Assembly: GCA_965216315.1 (NCBI GenBank)
Contig: CBDCFN010000016.1
Span: 1,024,001 to 1,088,000, forward strand
Source of the DNA: a bacterium
Lineage (GTDB): Bacteria; UBA10199; 2-02-FULL-50-16; JAJFLM01
DNA length: 64,000 nucleotides
Reading direction: 5' to 3'
Of the stretch, positions 13,539 to 62,394 are shown one piece after another (position 1 is the first letter of the stretch; each line of letters begins with the position of its first letter). The notes under the pieces were generated by a model that saw only the letters and a list, made by a program, of their open reading frames with translations, was not told where the DNA came from and made no database searches. The position numbers and the translations under genes are program-made.

Positions 13539-13577
13539 GTATTTTCTTGGTGCAAGCGCATGGAGAGGAGAATACAC

Positions 13578-15368
13578 ATGAAACAATACCGATCCATCGC
13601 TTGTCTTTTTTTGCTTATCCTCTTAACGATTCCGACCGATATTCTTGCCGGACCCTTTTGTGAAACCACGGAAAGGGGCTGCGCTGCGGGGCAGTACTGG
13701 GCCGGGTGGCCCGCCTGTCCGGCCACGGGATATCAACCGGGACTCGTGCTGAATAATTGTGAAAACCTATGCATCTGTTCCTATTGTCCGGGACGTAGTT
13801 GTGAAGCCGAGTGTGAAAGCCGATACGGTTCCACGAGTTTTCAGGTCGACAGTGCCGAGGTTGCGCGACGCATCGAACAGCTTGATTGCCGCGCGGTGGG
13901 CTATGGCTGTTCCGAACCTTTTGTCGTCGTCATGACAGATTACGGAGCGGACTGTCGTTGTCCGGCAGGTTCTTATCAGGACGGTGATAGCTGTGTTTGT
14001 CGGGGCGGTGGCACGATGGTGGACGGTGTTTGCATGTGTCCTGGTGGCACGACGCGAGTGCGCGCCGACGGGACGTGTCCGGCGACACCCCCGCCGACCG
14101 ACAGCGCGTGTTTGGCTCCGGTCACGGACACGTGCAGTGCTCAATTGCGCATGCTGGAATTCGCTAAGACCCGGTTCCGCCGCGGGAGTGGTGACTATCT
14201 AACGGCGTACTGGAATTATTGGTGCGGTTGCAAGACGGAAGGGCGCACCGAGGTCTGCGGTTGCTTGAGGGGTGGACCCGATGCGCGCGGCGTGGCGGAT
14301 CCTGAGGGACTTTGTGATGCGGGAACCCCGAAACCGGCGGATTATTGTCCGAGCTGTGCGGAGCCGATGACACTCGTGGATGGAAGCTGTGTGTGTGCAC
14401 CCCCTCGTATAACGGCGGCGGATGGCACTTGTCAGTACCCGGTTGACCGGGAGCGAGACAGGTTGCCATGTTCCCGTCCGCAAATACGCAATGCCGACGG
14501 TGCCTGTGTTTGTCCCGCGCCGGCGACGATGGTAGGCGGGGTCTGCATTTGTCCCGATGGAACGACTTCGATGACTGAGGAGGGCCTCTGTCCGGTGACG
14601 GCCCGTGAGGAGGGTAGTACGCCCGGAACACCCGGAACCGAAATTCCGTGTCCTCCGGGAACGGTGAGGACGGAATCGGGTTGTGACCCGGTTCCCCCAC
14701 GTGTTCCCGGATCGAGTGATGGGCCGCGCTCAGGCGATCTTTTGCCGAGAGATCCGGCGACCGCGACGCCTCCTGCGCAAGGTTCCGATGAGCCACAAGG
14801 GAAGAGTACCGCTCTCGATTGTGGTGCCGCGGTTCAACTGCTGATACCGGAAGCCTACGAACTGCCCGATGGGACTCAAGCGATCGATTCTTATGGTGCC
14901 GCCCAACTGACAGTGTATCCGGATAAATTCCCTGCTCCCAGTCGATCTCCGGAGGTTGCGGATGATCGGCTTCGCTTGGTCAGTGACGCACCGGTTTCGA
15001 TTGACGTCTCCCTCAATCAGGTCAGTGGTTTTGCTCCCCGCGAGATTACCCTGAAATCGGGCGTAGCGGATGATGACGCGGCTAAGGATGCCGCTTCAAT
15101 GCCGGTGGCTCAGATTGAAGGTGCGATCCAAAGCAGGACGACGCACTTTTCGAGCTCACTGCGTACCAATCGTCCCCAGGTCCTTTCCATTGATTTTGGC
15201 ATGGCGCCGGCTAATTGGGATCAGTACATCCAAGGGCGTTACGGTGCGGATCACAACTTCGAGATGCATTTCCTAGTCAATGGAAAGCCTCATGTCTGTC
15301 AATTTAATGTCCCTCAGGTCTTGGCCAGCGTCGAGGGAGGAGCTTGCTCCCTGATACGCCGACCTTAA
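13578..15368 (+). CDS. Secreted cysteine-rich (EGF-like repeat) protein with Pro-rich linker and C-terminal VEGGACSLIRRP tag
   Basis: GGAGAGG RBS; signal peptide; repeated DGxCvC..P units; C-terminal beta-rich domain. Confidence 0.8.
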   Translation: MKQYRSIACLFLLILLTIPTDILAGPFCETTERGCAAGQYWAGWPACPATGYQPGLVLNNCENLCICSYCPGRSCEAECESRYGSTSFQVDSAEVARRIEQLDCRAVGYGCSEPFVVVMTDYGADCRCPAGSYQDGDSCVCRGGGTMVDGVCMCPGGTTRVRADGTCPATPPPTDSACLAPVTDTCSAQLRMLEFAKTRFRRGSGDYLTAYWNYWCGCKTEGRTEVCGCLRGGPDARGVADPEGLCDAGTPKPADYCPSCAEPMTLVDGSCVCAPPRITAADGTCQYPVDRERDRLPCSRPQIRNADGACVCPAPATMVGGVCICPDGTTSMTEEGLCPVTAREEGSTPGTPGTEIPCPPGTVRTESGCDPVPPRVPGSSDGPRSGDLLPRDPATATPPAQGSDEPQGKSTALDCGAAVQLLIPEAYELPDGTQAIDSYGAAQLTVYPDKFPAPSRSPEVADDRLRLVSDAPVSIDVSLNQVSGFAPREITLKSGVADDDAAKDAASMPVAQIEGAIQSRTTHFSSSLRTNRPQVLSIDFGMAPANWDQYIQGRYGADHNFEMHFLVNGKPHVCQFNVPQVLASVEGGACSLIRRP

Positions 15369-15597: not shown

Positions 15598-15669
15598 TCC
15601 GGGGTAGCTCAGCGGCAGAGTAGGTGGCTGTTAACCACTTGGTCGTGGGTTCGAATCCCACCCCCGGAG
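15598..15669 (+). tRNA. tRNA-Asn (GTT); CCA end not fully encoded
   Basis: TCCGGGG acceptor pairs with CCCCGGA; D arm GCTC/GAGT; anticodon arm GGTGG-CTGTTAA-CCACT; T arm GTGGG-TTCGAAT-CCCAC. Confidence 0.97.
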
Positions 15670-15870
15670 CATAAAAATCCGTTGGACCCTTCTGGGTCCG
15701 GCGGATTTTTTTTGTTTCGTGGTGGGTGAGACCCCCAACTGTGTTGGAAGGTTCGACGAGCGCTTCGCCGAAGGCGAAGACTTACGAAGTGCAATCGTCA
15801 TAAAGACGATTGCCTCCCTCCGAAGCGGGGAGTCCGCCAGCGGCGGACGAGCAAATCCCACCCCCGGAGC
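15649..15870 (+). repeat. 222-bp unit U, copy 1: att core, terminator, stacked hairpins, second att core
   Basis: Identical by eye to 29632-29853; AATCCCACCCCCGGAGC at both ends. Confidence 0.95.
15673..15713 (+). terminator. Rho-independent terminator after tRNA-Asn (copies at about 20148-20188 and 29656-29696)
   Basis: AAAAATCCGTTGGACCC-TTCT-GGGTCCGGCGGA followed by T8. Confidence 0.85.
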
Positions 15871-16990
15871 AAATTATCCCCTCTAAGTCATTGTACTTGG
15901 AGGGGATTTTTTTAGGTCGTGACAAGTGGTCACCATTTGGTCGCCACATGGGCTGAACTGTTGCGTGTGACTCCGAAATAAATTCCTGACCGACGTTCAC
16001 GCCTCGATTGACCTTCTCGCGCCACTCACTCATCTGCTCAGGAATCATGTGCGTGTAGTGATCGGTAATGCCGCTGGTCTTTTGTCCGACCCATTCCATT
16101 AGTGTCTTCTTGTCGACACCGGCTTTTAGCATACGCGAAATGTACGTGTGCCGCAGCTGATGCAGGGTCCGTTCAAACTTGTGATCGGACTTGAAGGTAT
16201 ACCATTGATGTTCAAAGGCCTTACGGGTCCCGCTCAAAATGGATTCGCAGGGAATTGTCGGAATCAGTTCCATGATAACGTCGGGCAGCGGGACCACGCG
16301 GGCCCGATAGGTCTTGGTTGTTGCGCCCTCGACAGACTTGATCCGAACTACGCCCAGGCGCAGGTCAAAATCAGATTTTTTGAGCTGCGCTAGCTCGCCC
16401 ATCCGCATCCCCGTGTTGTAAAGCACAAGGCAGACACGTTTCACCTCTTCCTGCGCGTTGCGCATCACGAAGCGGAACTCTTCGTCCGTCCACGGAACTT
16501 GCTGGATCTTTGGTGTGTTGCGCGGCTTCTCGACGCCCTCAACGGGATTTTCAAAGGCAAAGCCATTGTCGATGGCCTTTTTGAACATGGTATTGAGGAT
16601 GCCTAAGTCATTGCGTACCGTCTTGGCCGAACGACCCAAAGCGCGCCGGTGGTTTCTAAAAGCGACCACATCCGCGCGGTCAATGTTGCAGACCAGCATG
16701 TCCTTGAAGAAAGAGACAAAGTTGGAACGGATCCGATAACAGGAACTACGCAGATAGCGCTCGGATTTTTCGCGGAAGTGATTCTCAATGAAAAGCTCAG
16801 CGTAGTCAGCGAAGGGAATCGGCTCGACGCTCTCCATGCCGGCGCGGCGGCGCCCCAGGTAGTCTTCCTTGAGCCGCAGAAACTCCTTGGCGTTCTGACG
16901 GTCCTTGAACGACTGCGTGTACCTAACGCCAGCCTCGCGCCAGTCGACGACCCAGCGCTTGCGATTTTTGCGATACCGAATCACGGCCAT
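15782..16990 (-). CDS. Tyrosine recombinase/integrase; ORF reads through the att core
   Basis: Arm-binding-like N-terminus, SAM-like core, TGMRMGE, LHQLRH, DHYTH catalytic motifs. Confidence 0.93.
   Translation of the reverse strand: MAVIRYRKNRKRWVVDWREAGVRYTQSFKDRQNAKEFLRLKEDYLGRRRAGMESVEPIPFADYAELFIENHFREKSERYLRSSCYRIRSNFVSFFKDMLVCNIDRADVVAFRNHRRALGRSAKTVRNDLGILNTMFKKAIDNGFAFENPVEGVEKPRNTPKIQQVPWTDEEFRFVMRNAQEEVKRVCLVLYNTGMRMGELAQLKKSDFDLRLGVVRIKSVEGATTKTYRARVVPLPDVIMELIPTIPCESILSGTRKAFEHQWYTFKSDHKFERTLHQLRHTYISRMLKAGVDKKTLMEWVGQKTSGITDHYTHMIPEQMSEWREKVNRGVNVGQEFISESHATVQPMWRPNGDHLSRPKKIPSKYNDLEGIICSGGGICSSAAGGLPASEGGNRLYDDCTS
15876..15913 (+). terminator. Element-supplied terminator just inside the left end of E1
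   Basis: ATCCCCTCTAAGT-CATTGT-ACTTGGAGGGGAT followed by T run. Confidence 0.7.
15926..15946. promoter_or_regulatory. Putative integrase arm-type binding site pair (also 19952-19972 and 29460-29480)
   Basis: GTGGTCACCATTTGGTC(A/G)CCA seen three times, each near an att core. Confidence 0.7.
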
Positions 16991-29631: not shown

Positions 29632-29853
29632 GTTCGAATCCCACCCCCGGAGCATAAAAATCCGTTGGACCCTTCTGGGTCCGGCGGATTTTTTTTGTTT
29701 CGTGGTGGGTGAGACCCCCAACTGTGTTGGAAGGTTCGACGAGCGCTTCGCCGAAGGCGAAGACTTACGAAGTGCAATCGTCATAAAGACGATTGCCTCC
29801 CTCCGAAGCGGGGAGTCCGCCAGCGGCGGACGAGCAAATCCCACCCCCGGAGC
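29632..29853 (+). repeat. 222-bp unit U, copy 2; its last att core is followed by a complete CCA
   Basis: Identical to 15649-15870; ends CCCCGGAGCCA at 29855. Confidence 0.95.
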
Positions 29854-31587: not shown

Positions 31588-33222
31588 TTAACGCCGCAGC
31601 GAACAGCCACCGCCGGGCACAACCGTAAAGCTGACGCTCGCGCTATTGTCACTGATGTCGCTTTCCTCGACCTGCGAAGTAATCGTGACGGCATTGGTGA
31701 AATCACCTTCCGTATCGCTGCTGCCGCTATACATGAGGGTCGTGCTGTCACCGGCCGCGACGCCAACTGAACAGATCAACGCACCGTTCAGGGTGCAGGA
31801 ACCGTCGTCAATACTGATCGAGCTTTCGGCTACCGTCAGGCCGGACGGAATCATGTCGGTGAGGGTTGCACCGGCCCGGTCGGGGCCGTCGTTGCTGATT
31901 TCAATGGTGAAGTCGATTGTATCACCCACGCTGACTTCTGAGGTGCTGCTGACCTTGGAGATTTGTAGCTCGGCACTGTTGCCGAGTAGCCTAAAGGCGG
32001 CCATGTCGAAGCTCGTCGTGCCCGTCGCCAGGATCTGACCGTTACCGAGCACAAGAATACTGCGCACGTCGTCTTGAGTCCCCTCGTTAAAGTTTAAGCT
32101 ACCGCCGCTCGCAAAATTTGCGTCTAAGGCGCCACCGGGATCGAGGCGTGCGACAATAAAATCTGACTCGATCGAGAATGGTGGATTAACCGATCCTCCC
32201 ACCACGACGGAGGCATCCCGTTGAATAGCGATGGCGCTGGGACTGAAACTATCCGGGCTTAGGTCGATAGTGGCGATGCCCGAGTCGCCAAAACTCTCGA
32301 TAACACCACCGTTGGCATTGAGTCGCAGCACCAGAAGCGCGATGGGCGTATTAATACCATCGTCGTCGCTGAGGCCCGCAACGACGCCAATGCTATCATC
32401 AGAATGTACGGTCACGGCCCCCGGAAAGGCTGCCAAGCCTCCGGTAAATTCCGGCGCGAACAGCCCATCACTACCAAAACTTGTATCGGTGCTGCCTTCC
32501 GGGCTAAGCTGGGCTACAAAGAGTCCGGTGTCGGAGCTAAAGCCGGTAATAATGATGGCTCCACTGCTTTGTAAAGAAATTCCGCGGGTTACGGTTGCAG
32601 TGTCGTTGATTTTCAGAATAACGCTACCGTTGGTCCCGAATTCACTGTCACTGCTGCCATCATTTTGTAGGCGTGTTACATAGGCGGAGTCTCCATCGTC
32701 ATCTCCGGTGATAAGGATCTTCCCATCGCTTTGTAGGGCGGCTCCCGTTACAAAAGAATTAGCGATCGGCGGAGTCATGGTCTGCACGCCGTTTGTTCCA
32801 AAGCTATCATCTAAAGTGCCATCAGCGTTATATCGCACAAGTGATAGGTCATTGCCGCCAATCAGTAGAATCTTATCATCGGGCAAGATGAGAATGGCGT
32901 TCGGAATATCATCGCCGCCAGTTGCGTCAGTAGTGCTGATACCGTTCGTGCCAAAGTTTGTATCCAGTTGGCCGTCGGTATCGAGACGATAGGCCGCATA
33001 GTCGCGGTTGCCGATCGTTCCGGCGGTACTAATGACGATGAGCTTGCCATCACTTTGCAAAGCACCGGCGCCGATAAAATTTTGATTCCCATCGATATCC
33101 TGGATGGCTATGCCGCCCGTCCCGAAATTGCCGTCAAAATCGCCGGGCGCCGCCCAGCTGGTTTTACTACCGCTGACGCACAGGATTGAGAGTAGAAGTA
33201 GTGAATAAAACAGTATTTTCAT
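31588..33222 (-). CDS. Secreted delta-60 repeat beta-propeller + DUF11 protein with C-terminal VVPGGGCSLRR tag
   Basis: Signal peptide SWA; repeated LQSDGKI...LDxxFGxxG; FTIEISNDGPD and DNSASV of DUF11. Confidence 0.88.
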   Translation of the reverse strand: MKILFYSLLLLSILCVSGSKTSWAAPGDFDGNFGTGGIAIQDIDGNQNFIGAGALQSDGKLIVISTAGTIGNRDYAAYRLDTDGQLDTNFGTNGISTTDATGGDDIPNAILILPDDKILLIGGNDLSLVRYNADGTLDDSFGTNGVQTMTPPIANSFVTGAALQSDGKILITGDDDGDSAYVTRLQNDGSSDSEFGTNGSVILKINDTATVTRGISLQSSGAIIITGFSSDTGLFVAQLSPEGSTDTSFGSDGLFAPEFTGGLAAFPGAVTVHSDDSIGVVAGLSDDDGINTPIALLVLRLNANGGVIESFGDSGIATIDLSPDSFSPSAIAIQRDASVVVGGSVNPPFSIESDFIVARLDPGGALDANFASGGSLNFNEGTQDDVRSILVLGNGQILATGTTSFDMAAFRLLGNSAELQISKVSSTSEVSVGDTIDFTIEISNDGPDRAGATLTDMIPSGLTVAESSISIDDGSCTLNGALICSVGVAAGDSTTLMYSGSSDTEGDFTNAVTITSQVEESDISDNSASVSFTVVPGGGCSLRR

Positions 33223-50494: not shown

Positions 50495-50866
50495 ATGTTG
50501 TTAGCAAAGGTTATCCTGAAAATTGTCGGTATTGCAGTTCTGTGTCTCTCCGGCGTGAAAATTGCGGCTGCCCAGGTACCCTACATCGATGGGCAGATTG
50601 GTGGGCATGTTAACACTGTTGAAGCCGCTGGTGACATTGTTTTTGTAACTTATGACGGTGCGCTTCAAATCATTGACTGCATAGAATTAGCGAAACCAAC
50701 TCTACTCGGCACGTGGACAACGCTTGGTGGCGCCAATGCGAATGGGGGAGGCTGCGGTTGTAGTGTCCAAGCCGCTCAGCCCAACGCTCAGTGGCAAGAA
50801 GCCATTATAATTGGCTTAGTTATGCTTTTTATGTTAGGTATTCGGTTACGCAGTTCGGGAGAGTAA
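50495..50866 (+). CDS. Short secreted protein with one LVIVD-like unit and a MYXO-CTERM-type anchor
   Basis: GAGGAGG RBS; signal peptide; ALQIID..P.LLG; GGGCGCSV + TM + RLR. Confidence 0.7.
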   Translation: MLLAKVILKIVGIAVLCLSGVKIAAAQVPYIDGQIGGHVNTVEAAGDIVFVTYDGALQIIDCIELAKPTLLGTWTTLGGANANGGGCGCSVQAAQPNAQWQEAIIIGLVMLFMLGIRLRSSGE

Positions 50867-58896: not shown

Positions 58897-61800
58897 GTGA
58901 GTGTGGTGCGACTTGAACTCAGACGGTATCGACGACCTGCCTGGGCCGTTGTTGTTACTGTTATAACATTTTTTCTCTGTGCCCCTGTTTTTGCGGCGAC
59001 CCTTCAAGTCGATATGAAAGATCCTGACTGTGGTCAGGTTAACAAGCCCTATTGTAAAATCGAAAACGCAATCAATAACTCAGCCGCTGGAGATACAATT
59101 GAGATTGCCTCCGGCATCTATATAGAAAACGTCATGGTTGGGCACGATCTGACGATTAACGGCGAAGACCGAGATACAACCATCGTTGACGGGAACAATG
59201 TTACCTATGGCGCTCGTTTTGCCCCTTCAACGACAGTCACTGTCAACAATATGACTTTTCGCAACGGGAAGTATTCGCGTGGTGCGGGGATTTATACGTA
59301 TGCGCAACAATTAACGCTGAATAACGTGGCACTCAAACACAACAGTGCGGACGTCAATGGCGGGGCGATCCAGTTTGAACGAGGCAATCTCACTATCAAT
59401 GATTCCATTATTGAGCGCAATCGTGCCAGCGAATTCGGTGGGGCGATCTATGTCCATCCGGATGCAACATTGCTGACGATCAATAATAGCAAGATTCGGC
59501 ATAACAATGCCGGCGTCGAGGGGGGAGCTATTTTCCATCAGGGTGAGAAAGTTAAGCTAGATAAAGGAACGCGCATTCAGGGCAATAAGGCCATCCAGGA
59601 TGGTGGGGCCCTCTTTGTACATCAAGAGGCGGATGACCTGGAAATTCATGATAGCTCTATTCTATTCAATCGTACTGAAAAGCGCGGTGGGGCGATGTTT
59701 TTACACGGTGGCAATGTGACGATTAAGGGCAGTCATATTAATCATAATACGGCCCTTGGGCAGGGGATCAATCAGAATGGTGGTGGCGCTATTTATGCCA
59801 ATGGAAGTCAGATGAATATAGATAATACGGTAATTAGCGGCAACCGAACCGAAGGTTCCGGTGGAGGAATTTTGCTGCGCGCCAGTGGTGATCTTGTGAT
59901 CACAAATAGTGTCCTAAGCTATAATTATGCCGGATTCAACGGTGGCGGTTTTGATCTCGCCTTGCAAGGAACGACACTTGATGCCCGCAATGTGACGATT
60001 AGCGGGAATGCGGCCAAAAAGCGTGGCGGCGGTCTTTTTAGTAATAATCACGTCCACTCGAAACTTAATAACGTGACGATCACGAAAAATATTGCGGCCG
60101 CAGTCAACGATCCGGATGGGCATGGCGGCGGTATTTACCTCTTTAGTATGCCGAACAATGATAAGCTCGTCTTTGAAATGAGCAATACGATCGTTGCGGG
60201 GAACAAGAGCTTGATCAATAGTGGTAACGATTGTCTGACGGCGGCGACAAAGCTCAAATCGTTGGGACATAACATTGTCGGTGATTTGGGCGCACAATGT
60301 ACGCTTGATCCCGCCGCTGGAGATCCGGCCTCGACGGATCAAACCGGTGTGCCTGATGTCATGTTAGGCGTATTGGCCGACAATGGGGGTCCGACACCAA
60401 CTCACGCACTACTGGAAGGGAGTCCGGCTATCGATAAGGGTAATAATGATAGCTGTGAGTCTGCAGATCAGCGCGGCTATGACCGACCTTTTGATGGTGA
60501 CGAGAATGGGGTGGCAGATTGCGATGTCGGGGCTTATGAATTTGGGGCGGAAGGCGACGGCGAGCCAGATGATGGCGGTGATCCCGGTGACACGCCTGCC
60601 GATGAAGGTGTTTTGCCGGGGCCTGATGGCGGAGCGGGTGACGGCGCAGGAGAAGCGAATGGCGCCAAAGAACTACTTGAGGTTCAAGGTGGCGGTTCTT
60701 GTGGTTGTGATATTCGAGGGGTCCAAGCCGCGCCGACGTGGATGCATGCGTGGCTTGCCTTGATGGGAGCCTTTTTTGCAGTGATAATCGGGCTTCGTTT
60801 TCGGAGGCATAAAGTCAAAGCGAGCTTGTTTCTGGTTGTTCTATCCCTCTTGGTCTGGAGTCAACATGTTGAAGCGGCGAGCACGCTCAAAGTTGACCGA
60901 TCTGACCTGAATTGTCAGGCGGCTGCTGAACCCTATTGCACGATCCAGGCGGCCATTGATGATGCGACGGCAGGGGATACTATCGAGATTGCTGCTGGGC
61001 TTTATTTCGAAAACCTCATCGTGCCTGACAACAAGGAACTTATTATTAAGGGGAAGGGTTATAGCCAAACAATTCTTGATGGACGCAACCTAGGGCCCGT
61101 CATTGAGCTTAAGACTTTTACGGATGTGGAAATTGAGGGTGTCACTCTCCGTCACGGTAAGGCTCCGTTTGGAGGGGGCATTATTACCGTGGGGGATGAT
61201 TTAGAAGTCCGTAATTCCGTGATTGCTTTTAATAGCGCAACCAATGTTTCGGGAGGGGGCATCTATTCGGCAGCGAATCTTGGTCGCTTAAAGCTCGTCA
61301 ATAGTACGGTGCACTACAACGCGGTAACGGGTCCCAATGGAAACGGAGGTGGCATCTATTGGAGCGGCATCGGTGGCGCTTTTCTCGATAAGACCCACGT
61401 TGTTGGGAATTATGGGGACGGAAATGGAGCGGGCGTTCATATCGCCTCCGGCGCTGCGCTGACGATGACTGAAGGCAAGATTGCAGCAAATCGTGCCGGT
61501 GATAATGGCGGGGGGCTCTTTCATGCTTCAACCGGTGAATTAAGCGTTAATAAGACCGTAATTCGGGAAAATCATGCAGGTTTGGCGGGCGCCGGCGTCT
61601 ACATCGGTAATCAAGTGACCGAGAGTAAGATTTTGCAGAGCCAAATCAAAGGCAATCATGTTAGTCAGTCGGATGGCGGCGGCATCCTTCATGGGGGAGG
61701 TAAGCTGACGCTTGTAGATACCGAAGTCAGCGGCAATCGCGCTGCAGAAGGAGCGGGTATTCGCGCCACGGCTAATCTCGATATTGAGAGAAGTACTATG

Positions 61801-62394
61801 AGTTACAATCTTGCGACGGTTGATGGCGGGGGTGTTTCTGCCGAACTTGGCGTTGCACTTAATATGCTCAACAGTACGGTCAGTGGTAACGCCTGTTTCA
61901 AACACGGAGCGGGAATTGATGCCCTAGGCACGAGCCATCTTCACTACGTAACGATTACAGGAAATGTGGCGGATCTAGATGAAGATAACGTTGGTGCCGG
62001 TGGCGGAATGAGTTTCTCGGACAACATGCACATGGAGAATTCACTTCTCGCAATGAATCGAACGTATAGCGGTGATGGTCATGATTGCTCCGGTAAAATT
62101 AAGTCTGATGGTTATAATCTGATTCGTGACTACGATGATACGAATTGCAAGCTGGACCCTGCGGGATACGATCCGGCCTCTAAAGACATCACCGGTCTCA
62201 CCAATGATCCTAAGCTAGGTCTATTGAAAGATAATGGCGGCTCCACTCCGACGCACGCGATTAACGAAGGCAGTGTTGCCATTGATGCGGCTGATCCCAA
62301 TAGTGCTGAAGCAAAGGATCAACGTCAGGCACCGCGCCCTGCCGGGAATCATAATGATATAGGTGCCTTTGAATACAACAGCCAAGCGCCTTAA
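58897..62394 (+). CDS. Two tandem beta-helix (GGAI-repeat) / choice-of-anchor Q modules joined by an internal MYXO-CTERM anchor and second signal peptide
   Basis: Both modules start TLxVD...C....PYC.I..AI....AGDTIEIA.G.Y.EN and end L.DNGG.TPTHA...GS.AID...DQR...D.GA.E. Confidence 0.88.
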   Translation: MSVVRLELRRYRRPAWAVVVTVITFFLCAPVFAATLQVDMKDPDCGQVNKPYCKIENAINNSAAGDTIEIASGIYIENVMVGHDLTINGEDRDTTIVDGNNVTYGARFAPSTTVTVNNMTFRNGKYSRGAGIYTYAQQLTLNNVALKHNSADVNGGAIQFERGNLTINDSIIERNRASEFGGAIYVHPDATLLTINNSKIRHNNAGVEGGAIFHQGEKVKLDKGTRIQGNKAIQDGGALFVHQEADDLEIHDSSILFNRTEKRGGAMFLHGGNVTIKGSHINHNTALGQGINQNGGGAIYANGSQMNIDNTVISGNRTEGSGGGILLRASGDLVITNSVLSYNYAGFNGGGFDLALQGTTLDARNVTISGNAAKKRGGGLFSNNHVHSKLNNVTITKNIAAAVNDPDGHGGGIYLFSMPNNDKLVFEMSNTIVAGNKSLINSGNDCLTAATKLKSLGHNIVGDLGAQCTLDPAAGDPASTDQTGVPDVMLGVLADNGGPTPTHALLEGSPAIDKGNNDSCESADQRGYDRPFDGDENGVADCDVGAYEFGAEGDGEPDDGGDPGDTPADEGVLPGPDGGAGDGAGEANGAKELLEVQGGGSCGCDIRGVQAAPTWMHAWLALMGAFFAVIIGLRFRRHKVKASLFLVVLSLLVWSQHVEAASTLKVDRSDLNCQAAAEPYCTIQAAIDDATAGDTIEIAAGLYFENLIVPDNKELIIKGKGYSQTILDGRNLGPVIELKTFTDVEIEGVTLRHGKAPFGGGIITVGDDLEVRNSVIAFNSATNVSGGGIYSAANLGRLKLVNSTVHYNAVTGPNGNGGGIYWSGIGGAFLDKTHVVGNYGDGNGAGVHIASGAALTMTEGKIAANRAGDNGGGLFHASTGELSVNKTVIRENHAGLAGAGVYIGNQVTESKILQSQIKGNHVSQSDGGGILHGGGKLTLVDTEVSGNRAAEGAGIRATANLDIERSTMSYNLATVDGGGVSAELGVALNMLNSTVSGNACFKHGAGIDALGTSHLHYVTITGNVADLDEDNVGAGGGMSFSDNMHMENSLLAMNRTYSGDGHDCSGKIKSDGYNLIRDYDDTNCKLDPAGYDPASKDITGLTNDPKLGLLKDNGGSTPTHAINEGSVAIDAADPNSAEAKDQRQAPRPAGNHNDIGAFEYNSQAP

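Follow-up and report, generated by a model that had tools for sequence, protein, structure and literature searches.

The cysteine-type sorting signals described in bioRxiv 10.1101/2023.06.07.544157 and PMC11980579 are all tripartite. Both sources hold the enzyme that lipidates the Cys of MYXO-CTERM to be unknown, and Guo, Haft and Wall (PMC11980579) name Lgt as the leading candidate, as yet untested. The CaaX box pathway, as the same two sources present it, consists of a prenyltransferase, Rce1 and ICMT. A search of the literature on MYXO-CTERM, myxosortases and CPBP-family proteases, supplements and subscription papers aside, found no helix-free Cys sorting signal.

The 64-kb window (the whole stretch of DNA analysed here) holds two tails that stop shortly behind such a cysteine and two in which a transmembrane (TM) helix follows it:

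15336..15368, + strand: short Cys tag, site 1, reading GGACSLIRRP-stop; Cys codon 15345-15347
13560..15368, + strand: carrier 1, a Cys-rich orphan of 602 aa, likely start 13581, hydrophobic N-terminus
31588..31617, - strand: short Cys tag, site 2, reading GGGCSLRR-stop; Cys codon 31603-31605
31588..33222, - strand: carrier 2, 544 aa, with delta-60 repeat and DUF11 domains
50744..50866, + strand: helix-bearing sister tail, GGGCGCSV-spacer-TM-RLR, closing the 123-aa ORF 50495-50866
60688..60820, + strand: internal helix-bearing tail, GGGSCGC-spacer-TM-RFRR, within ORF 58897-62394 and followed by a second signal-peptide-like stretch

The short tag resembles MYXO-CTERM (TIGR03901) in the Gly-rich stalk that leads to an invariant Cys near the C-terminus, in its occurrence on many unrelated signal-peptide proteins of a genome that has one myxosortase plus a T2SS (type II secretion system), in its client domain families, which are the same, and in the way that homologs swap sorting signals in the same place (tail swaps and polyprotein ends). 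It differs in lacking the spacer, the TM helix and the cytoplasmic Arg cluster (2-5 basic residues), in a stop that comes 4-9 residues past a single Cys, in its phylum, and in a myxosortase gene that is here coupled to a second Lgt gene, a pairing absent from the accessible text of bioRxiv 10.1101/2023.06.07.544157 and PMC11980579. Three other Cys-type signals with a CPBP protease likewise have a single invariant Cys behind a Gly/Ser cluster; they, too, differ in being tripartite, with a helix.

The earlier note on this DNA had called the tail CaaX-like. That is apt as regards the terminal Cys, the few, mostly aliphatic residues that follow it without a helix and the Rce1-family protease as candidate cutter, but not as regards spacing: four residues after the Cys are usual (exactly four in 16/29 tags of this genome and 46/59 in relatives' loci), and the three-residue spacing occurs in 0/29 and 0/59 tags. 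The tag also differs in sitting on exported, not cytosolic, proteins and in its candidate lipid, diacylglycerol supplied via Lgt. A protein prenyltransferase (PF00432) had no match in the genome, and control genomes were equally silent. The one ICMT-like gene (PF04140) was considered as a CaaX methylase, a role from which its context points away: it lies directly behind a chalcone-synthase-like ORF (recognized by eye, not by HMM), likely as one of a type III polyketide synthase pair, far from the lgt2-myxosortase operon described below. With the N-terminal lipobox (Lgt-LspA, PMC8689077) the tag would share Cys lipidation by an Lgt-fold enzyme, a cut beside the Cys and genes clustered with lspA; it lies at the opposite end of the chain, with opposite polarity, and has no membrane-spanning signal beside the Cys. 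The tag is MYXO-CTERM-like in its working, CaaX-like in its looks and a member of neither. NCBIfam scans of the carriers returned no family for it.

The two carriers in the window

The end of carrier 1 (15327-15368, + strand) reads SVEGGACSLIRRP before a TAA stop that closes ORF 13560-15368; the tag is somewhat atypical, with Ala preceding the Cys and six residues past it. Carrier 1 matched no Pfam or NCBIfam family, and a homolog search with the site-1 protein, its C-terminal domain included, found none, so that site 1 has no ortholog test. Carrier 2 ends VVPGGGCSLRR-stop, and its relative in genome G003 (58% identity) ends GGGCSLVR-stop. Each carrier has a hydrophobic stretch at its N-terminus, as judged by a hydropathy heuristic and not by a signal-peptide predictor; read in that way, the Sec signal peptides claimed for both proteins are there, as is the short GG-x-C tag on two unrelated exported proteins (both sequences are present as given in the earlier note, and 29 proteins have the tag genome-wide). 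The two full MYXO-CTERM signals claimed for the window hold up by half: ANGGGCGCSV-TM is terminal, but VQGGGSCGC-TM-RFRR is internal to the 1165-aa choice-of-anchor Q ORF 58897-62394 (+ strand), which has a two-unit polyprotein layout with its joint at 60688. The second surface unit of that ORF is without a Cys tail. ORF 50495-50866 (+ strand) encodes a tiny exported protein (123 aa) with a mature portion of ~55 residues and a full helix-bearing GGGCGC tail.

Census of the genome

The genome (G000, 2.96 Mb) was surveyed with the expression GG.?CSL.{1,5}$, which had been proposed as a check: among 2693 non-overlapping ORFs 20 end in a match, among 8734 shadow ORFs none does, and the occurrence of the tag is not due to chance. 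A looser rule, open after C-[STA]-L and applied to ORFs of >=120 aa, gave 30 candidates. One, which ends TCTLNF and has no hydrophobic N-terminus, was left out; the other 29 fit the consensus G-G-C-[ST]-L-[ILV]-R(x0-5)-stop at the C-terminus, with the Cys 4-9 residues from the end in 29/29. These carriers fall into 12 groups between which BLAST shows no link; homology joins 65 of the 406 possible pairs. Signal-peptide-like N-termini (here, a hydrophobic N-terminal stretch without a later helix, by the hydropathy heuristic) are found on 28/29 of them against 633/2331 ORFs (p=2e-15). Away from the C-terminus, G-x-C-[STA]-L-[ILMV]-[RK] has 0 occurrences in the genome's ORFs. A likeness to the N-terminal CSLREA motif was considered and set aside; many carriers, both window proteins among them, are without that domain.

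The short form has a consensus of its own behind the shared signature. Position +3 is aliphatic in 25/29 short forms against 5/20 helix forms, and Arg or Lys stands at +3 or +4 in 28/29 against 2/20; a rule requiring those residues and the open rule gave the same 29, so the way of filtering does not create the difference. One terminal Arg is common, two or none are found at times, and tags of relatives may end without a basic residue (CSLIP, CSLVF, CSLIPEQ, CSLVMQ, CSLILQ). Of the minimal variant proposed by the earlier note, which keeps GG-x-C and the basic end, the helix-free and portable Cys tail stands, but the terminal basic residue is typical, not obligatory.

No helix lies hidden past the stop in any of the 30/30 candidates, whether reached by read-through or by a +-1 shift (highest 17-residue hydropathy, 1.69), as expected of a helix that is absent rather than recently lost to a stop or frameshift. 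The stops are TAA in 13, TAG in 10 and TGA in 6 of the 29; Ser is encoded by TCN and AGY, and Leu by all six codons. Because stops, Ser codons and Leu codons are this diverse, selection acts at the level of the peptide, and the same diversity rules out a DNA repeat or a recent duplication as the source of the tag. Each of the three objections that the earlier note had raised against itself is answered: the tag is not confined to two proteins, it is enriched among predicted exported ones, and it is not the stump of a recently lost TM tail.

Distribution in the phylum and beyond

At the DNA level the pattern GG-C-S/T-L-hydrophobic-R-(x)-stop has matches in 24 of the 93 genomes of the phylum and, with its last residue left free, in 31 of the 93; the reversed pattern, run as a control, gave 0 to 1 match per strand. 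Apart from this genome, 23 others in the phylum have long ORFs that the tag closes. Tag-rich genomes, with 9 to 30 matches each (G000, G003, G053, G054, G057 and G060), fall within one clade, families f1 and f14-f17, in both of two quick Lgt trees; single tags are found outside it, in f3, f5, f8, f10, f11 and f23. In 40 loci from 18 genomes, 59 of 506 ORFs are tag-terminated (the loci were chosen for a match, which biases the share of Arg), and 50 of the 54 complete tagged ORFs in these chosen loci have a hydrophobic N-terminus. Beyond these 18, five genomes have variants such as CSLIPEQ, CSLVMQ and CSLILQ. One metalloprotease-like carrier keeps its short tag in orthologs of four families.

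Among 301 Myxococcota genomes, 29 have one or two pattern matches, the same as in the control, and there is no enrichment; viral contigs gave 0 tag matches; a metagenome scan returned 39 loci, ~16 of them at the ends of long or contig-cut ORFs, the remainder being chance or unrecovered. The bare GGGCSL DNA pattern was tried as a tally of all tails and abandoned as too noisy against its control.

Exchange with helix-bearing tails

The GGC[ST]L signature is common to short and helix-bearing forms. This genome has at least 20 terminal tails of the form GGC[ST]L-spacer-helix-basic (25 model matches if inner ones are counted), and a model built from 18 of them has matches in 88 of the 93 genomes. 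Helix-bearing tails are thus found throughout the phylum, and the short ones likely derive from them. Only one of the helix-bearing tails passes TIGR03901 (best 21.2 bits, cut-off 20), and the same scans matched no short tag.

One pair of orthologs, 779 aa each with 54% identity over 777 columns, has the same DACDCNGG before the tails, which read GSGGCSL-spacer-TM-RRRRN in this genome and GGGGCSLIR in G053; a second tail-swap pair has 44% identity. In the polyproteins of G053 and G054, 8/8 inner joints are built as GGC[SA]L-TM-basic-signal peptide and the ends read GGCSLIR(E) in 4/4 ORFs examined, and the 2997-aa homolog in this genome has the helix form at its end. Choice-of-anchor Q, cysteine-rich acidic repeats and CSLREA domains are common to carriers of both forms (the domain scan covered 16/29 short and 11/20 helix carriers, plus both window carriers). 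Families typical of myxosortase clients, choice-of-anchor Q/D and the myxo cysteine-rich repeat, are among them, and there are weak matches to myxosortase-dependent proteases. To judge from these sequences, short and helix-bearing tails are interchangeable.

The genomes with few helix forms are less telling. G060 has 9 short tags and 0 helix-form matches and keeps both lgt2 and myxosortase genes, and G057, with 1 helix-form match, has an intact myxosortase. The argument from G060 is weak, because G077, G078 and G091, which keep the protease with 0 helix-form matches and no short-tag match, show that a helix model built from this genome misses tails.

Beside ispG (L107:274-4288; G000 C16:497273-501290) there is a tandem duplicate of a 220-aa exported protein and a metalloprotease-like protein, in which one copy has a helix tail and the other a short tag, the latter with orthologs in G003, G055, G060 and G042. 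Three- and four-unit polyproteins are found at L116 (G000 C16:2348413-2357406), L083 and L087, with hairpins of Cys motif, helix and signal peptide as their joints.

Myxosortase and a second Lgt

The genome has a single CPBP protease (PF02517), which scores 118 bits against NF040914 (Mrt_core; cut-off 100) and is a myxosortase by that measure, scoring under the full-length cut-offs of MrtX, MrtC and MrtP and under those of MrtJ and MrtS. The catalytic PEE-x3-R and H-x3-N are invariant in 49 rows, and NF040914 is above cut-off in 80/93 genomes of the phylum against 0/14 controls. The gene stands last in a cluster:

L117:929-7005 (G000 C16:1904925-1911004): lgt1-lipoprotein-ileS-lspA-lgt2-mrt

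Two Lgts are present in 86 of the 93 genomes, and of 55 loci 50 have lgt2 immediately upstream of the myxosortase gene, the two stops being 607-886 nt apart; among the other five, one is cut by a contig end that leaves only part of Lgt2, one starts at a contig edge and three are unexplained. None of 20 Myxococcota-like myxosortase loci showed the pair. In the Myxococcota-like loci L010, L022, L025, L028 and L029 a ~550-aa carbamoyltransferase-like ORF (by eye) lies 1-2 genes upstream of the myxosortase gene, with no Lgt there.

Lgt1 passes TIGR00544 (157.5, cut-off 118.9) and Lgt2 fails it (103). The predicted model of Lgt2 (pLDDT 91) aligns with E. coli Lgt (TM-score 0.81; 5AZB, E 7e-10), and on this model Lgt2 has the Lgt fold. 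In E. coli Lgt the key residues are His103, which is catalytic, Arg143, Asn146, Tyr235, Arg239 and Arg246 (PMC8689077). Equivalents of R143, R239, E243 and R246 are present in 50/50 Lgt2 proteins, and that of Y235 is kept or mostly kept; the H103 position is non-His in nearly all Lgt1 and Lgt2 of the group (and variable in Lgt2), and the N146 position is Cys in both. Phe replaces Tyr26, a residue with a role in E. coli Lgt, in 46 of the 50 rows, and Gly27 in 39. A further His is specific to Lgt2 (50/50, against 2/18 Lgt1 at the same position). The invariant His and a bulky residue at G27 set Lgt2 apart from Lgt1, and of the 18 Myxococcota paralogs grouping with Lgt2, 16 have the same marks. 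The grouping comes from a quickly built 70-row tree (13 of 51 Lgt2, 9 of 18 Lgt1 and 48 Myxococcota; no bootstrap), in which Lgt2 and the 18 Myxococcota proteins cluster with moderate support (SH-aLRT 89), and 12 tandem lgt pairs split one gene per group, while one pair does not. By its residues and its place in this tree, Lgt2 qualifies as a distinct subfamily with counterparts in Myxococcota. The Lgt2 proteins of the tag-rich clade have clade-specific residues, which could supply specificity for the tag or may be plain ancestry.

The T2SS secretin GspD is above cut-off in 5/5 genomes tested. The genome has two rhomboids; they are found likewise in 14/14 controls. A prediction of an Lgt2-myxosortase complex gave no answer (score 0.00) and is counted for neither side.

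A proposed route and its competitors

We put at roughly 0.57 the probability that the tail is a helix-free, MYXO-CTERM-like signal that is read by an Lgt2, myxosortase and T2SS route, with lipidation and cleavage as its inferred steps. Sec export would deliver the C-terminus last, near the inner membrane, and Leu-Ile-Arg would keep the tail at the membrane surface until diacylglyceryl is transferred from phosphatidylglycerol; the Cys would likely be lipidated by an Lgt-family enzyme, probably the Lgt2 encoded before the myxosortase. The lipid would take the place of the absent helix and offer the peptide to the Rce1-type protease, a part played by prenyl in CaaX. (MmRce1, the Rce1 homolog of an archaeon, is reported to cut a lipidated peptide that has no helix and ends ASGCLVS; Haft, bioRxiv 10.1101/2023.06.07.544157.) The myxosortase would likely cut behind the Cys, and the T2SS would then carry the protein to the cell surface. 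A helix would be required only where the chain recrosses the membrane, as at the inner joints of polyproteins.

Several considerations count against this route. The helices of the protease are expected to grip the helix of the substrate (Haft, bioRxiv 10.1101/2023.06.07.544157). Since MrtX cut TraA in E. coli, a host with canonical Lgt only (PMC11980579), Lgt2 need not be the lipidating enzyme. The catalytic His103 is absent from nearly all Lgt1 and Lgt2 of the group. The need to keep a soluble tail at the membrane is a weak point, and so is the persistence of the protease in three genomes without detected tails of either form. The lgt2-mrt pair lies among housekeeping genes (ileS-lspA-lgt), a location that could be due to the normal maturation of lipoproteins. 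Profiling against the CPBP family, another of the checks proposed at the outset, finds the protease present, but phylum-wide (80/93), in contrast to the patchy short tags (in 24 or 31 of the 93, depending on the pattern); because this is true of both enzymes, co-occurrence cannot tie either the myxosortase or the Lgts to the short tag.

The earlier note had gone on to propose a distinct pathway with an enzyme of its own. In this form a clade-specific enzyme or receptor would read the short tag independently of myxosortase; the reader might be a lipid transferase of another kind, or else a scaffold in the envelope to which the tag is bound by disulfide or as a C-terminal peptide ligand. The consensus that follows GGCSL in short forms and is missing from helix forms, and the confinement of tag-rich genomes to one clade (f1 and f14-f17), fit such a reader, and a free C-terminus at a fixed distance would suit a carboxylate-binding pocket. 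Single tagged genes nevertheless occur in families outside that clade, f10 and f11 included. The sole CPBP protease is the phylum-wide myxosortase; apart from housekeeping synteny, tagged genes have no recurrent neighbor other than carriers in the 40 loci surveyed from 18 genomes; no exosortase was found in the genome, nor a prenyltransferase, for which the controls were silent too. The lipoprotein encoded behind lgt1 (L117:5702-6208, - strand; 169 aa, weak BamC/NlpB likeness) was considered as a tag-specific adaptor and rejected as phylum-wide, in single copy in 88/93 genomes. The clade-specific residues of Lgt2, if they are more than ancestry, could give specificity without a separate enzyme. 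With no prenyltransferase or tag-specific enzyme found, the pathway is unsupported and we regard it as unlikely; a clade-specific helper gene elsewhere in the genome is conceivable.

Quite unlikely, in our estimation, is a tag that mimics a pre-trimmed product, so that Lgt lipidates the Cys, the 4-6 residues behind it stay and myxosortase is bypassed. A tail that has no helix could leave the inner membrane without a cut; uncleaved lipidated proteins may reach the surface (PMC11980579); and the residues after the Cys vary from 4 to 9 in number. It sits poorly with the intact myxosortase of G060 and G057 (0 and 1 helix-form matches), a weak argument as explained above, and with the known ability of CPBP enzymes to trim short lipidated tails.

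That the short tail is a release signal, its proteins being secreted or loosely bound and the tail serving only to route them (for example, to the T2SS) or to set their turnover, is very unlikely. TraA lacking MYXO-CTERM does leave the cell via the T2SS, and coexisting paralogs with both tails might be anchored and shed versions of one protein. The Cys is kept, however, in 29/29 and 59/59 tags (it is built into the search pattern), the flexible Gly/Ser stalk and GG are retained as in the anchored form, and G053, G054, G057 and G060, with many more short tags than helix forms, would be left with few anchored proteins.

A remnant or DNA artefact (truncation of a helix tail, read-through, frameshift or a repeated element), which would explain a signature derived from or common to the helix form, is scarcely credible and is refuted by the codon and ortholog data: all three stops and varied Ser and Leu codons, no helix by read-through or +-1 shift in 30/30 candidates, and a metalloprotease-like ortholog that keeps the short tag in four families.

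Implications

The route through Lgt2 and myxosortase might be taken a step further, to a bacterial CaaX-like box: a helix-free six-residue tail that gives soluble exported proteins a lipid anchor in the envelope, lipidated by a dedicated Lgt paralog and trimmed by the adjacent myxosortase, with Lgt2 as the missing lipidating enzyme of MYXO-CTERM. This is tentative, and we give it somewhat less than an even chance. If true, it would be an exception to the rule by which a TM helix is required of any bacterial C-terminal sorting signal that a membrane protease cuts, and would offer a prokaryotic parallel of CaaX processing. The tag being a short, soluble peptide, a synthetic version can serve as substrate in mass-spectrometric assays of lipidation and cleavage. 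The lgt2-myxosortase pair is a concrete enzyme candidate, and through its counterparts in Myxococcota the idea can be put to the test in a cultured model organism. The same tail would be a minimal surface-display tag, a very small anchor for Gram-negative surfaces.

Minor observations

A tRNA-Asn (15598-15670) lies downstream of the site-1 gene and is followed by an integrase (15782-16990, - strand); 27 bases of the tRNA 3' region are repeated near 29632. A 14-kb integrated element is likely to occupy the interval between tRNA-Asn and ~29632, with the site-1 gene just outside it. One protein of G063 (L070:8468-10045, - strand) combines a lipobox-like N-terminus (LFGC) with a short C-terminal tag, and is possibly anchored at both ends.
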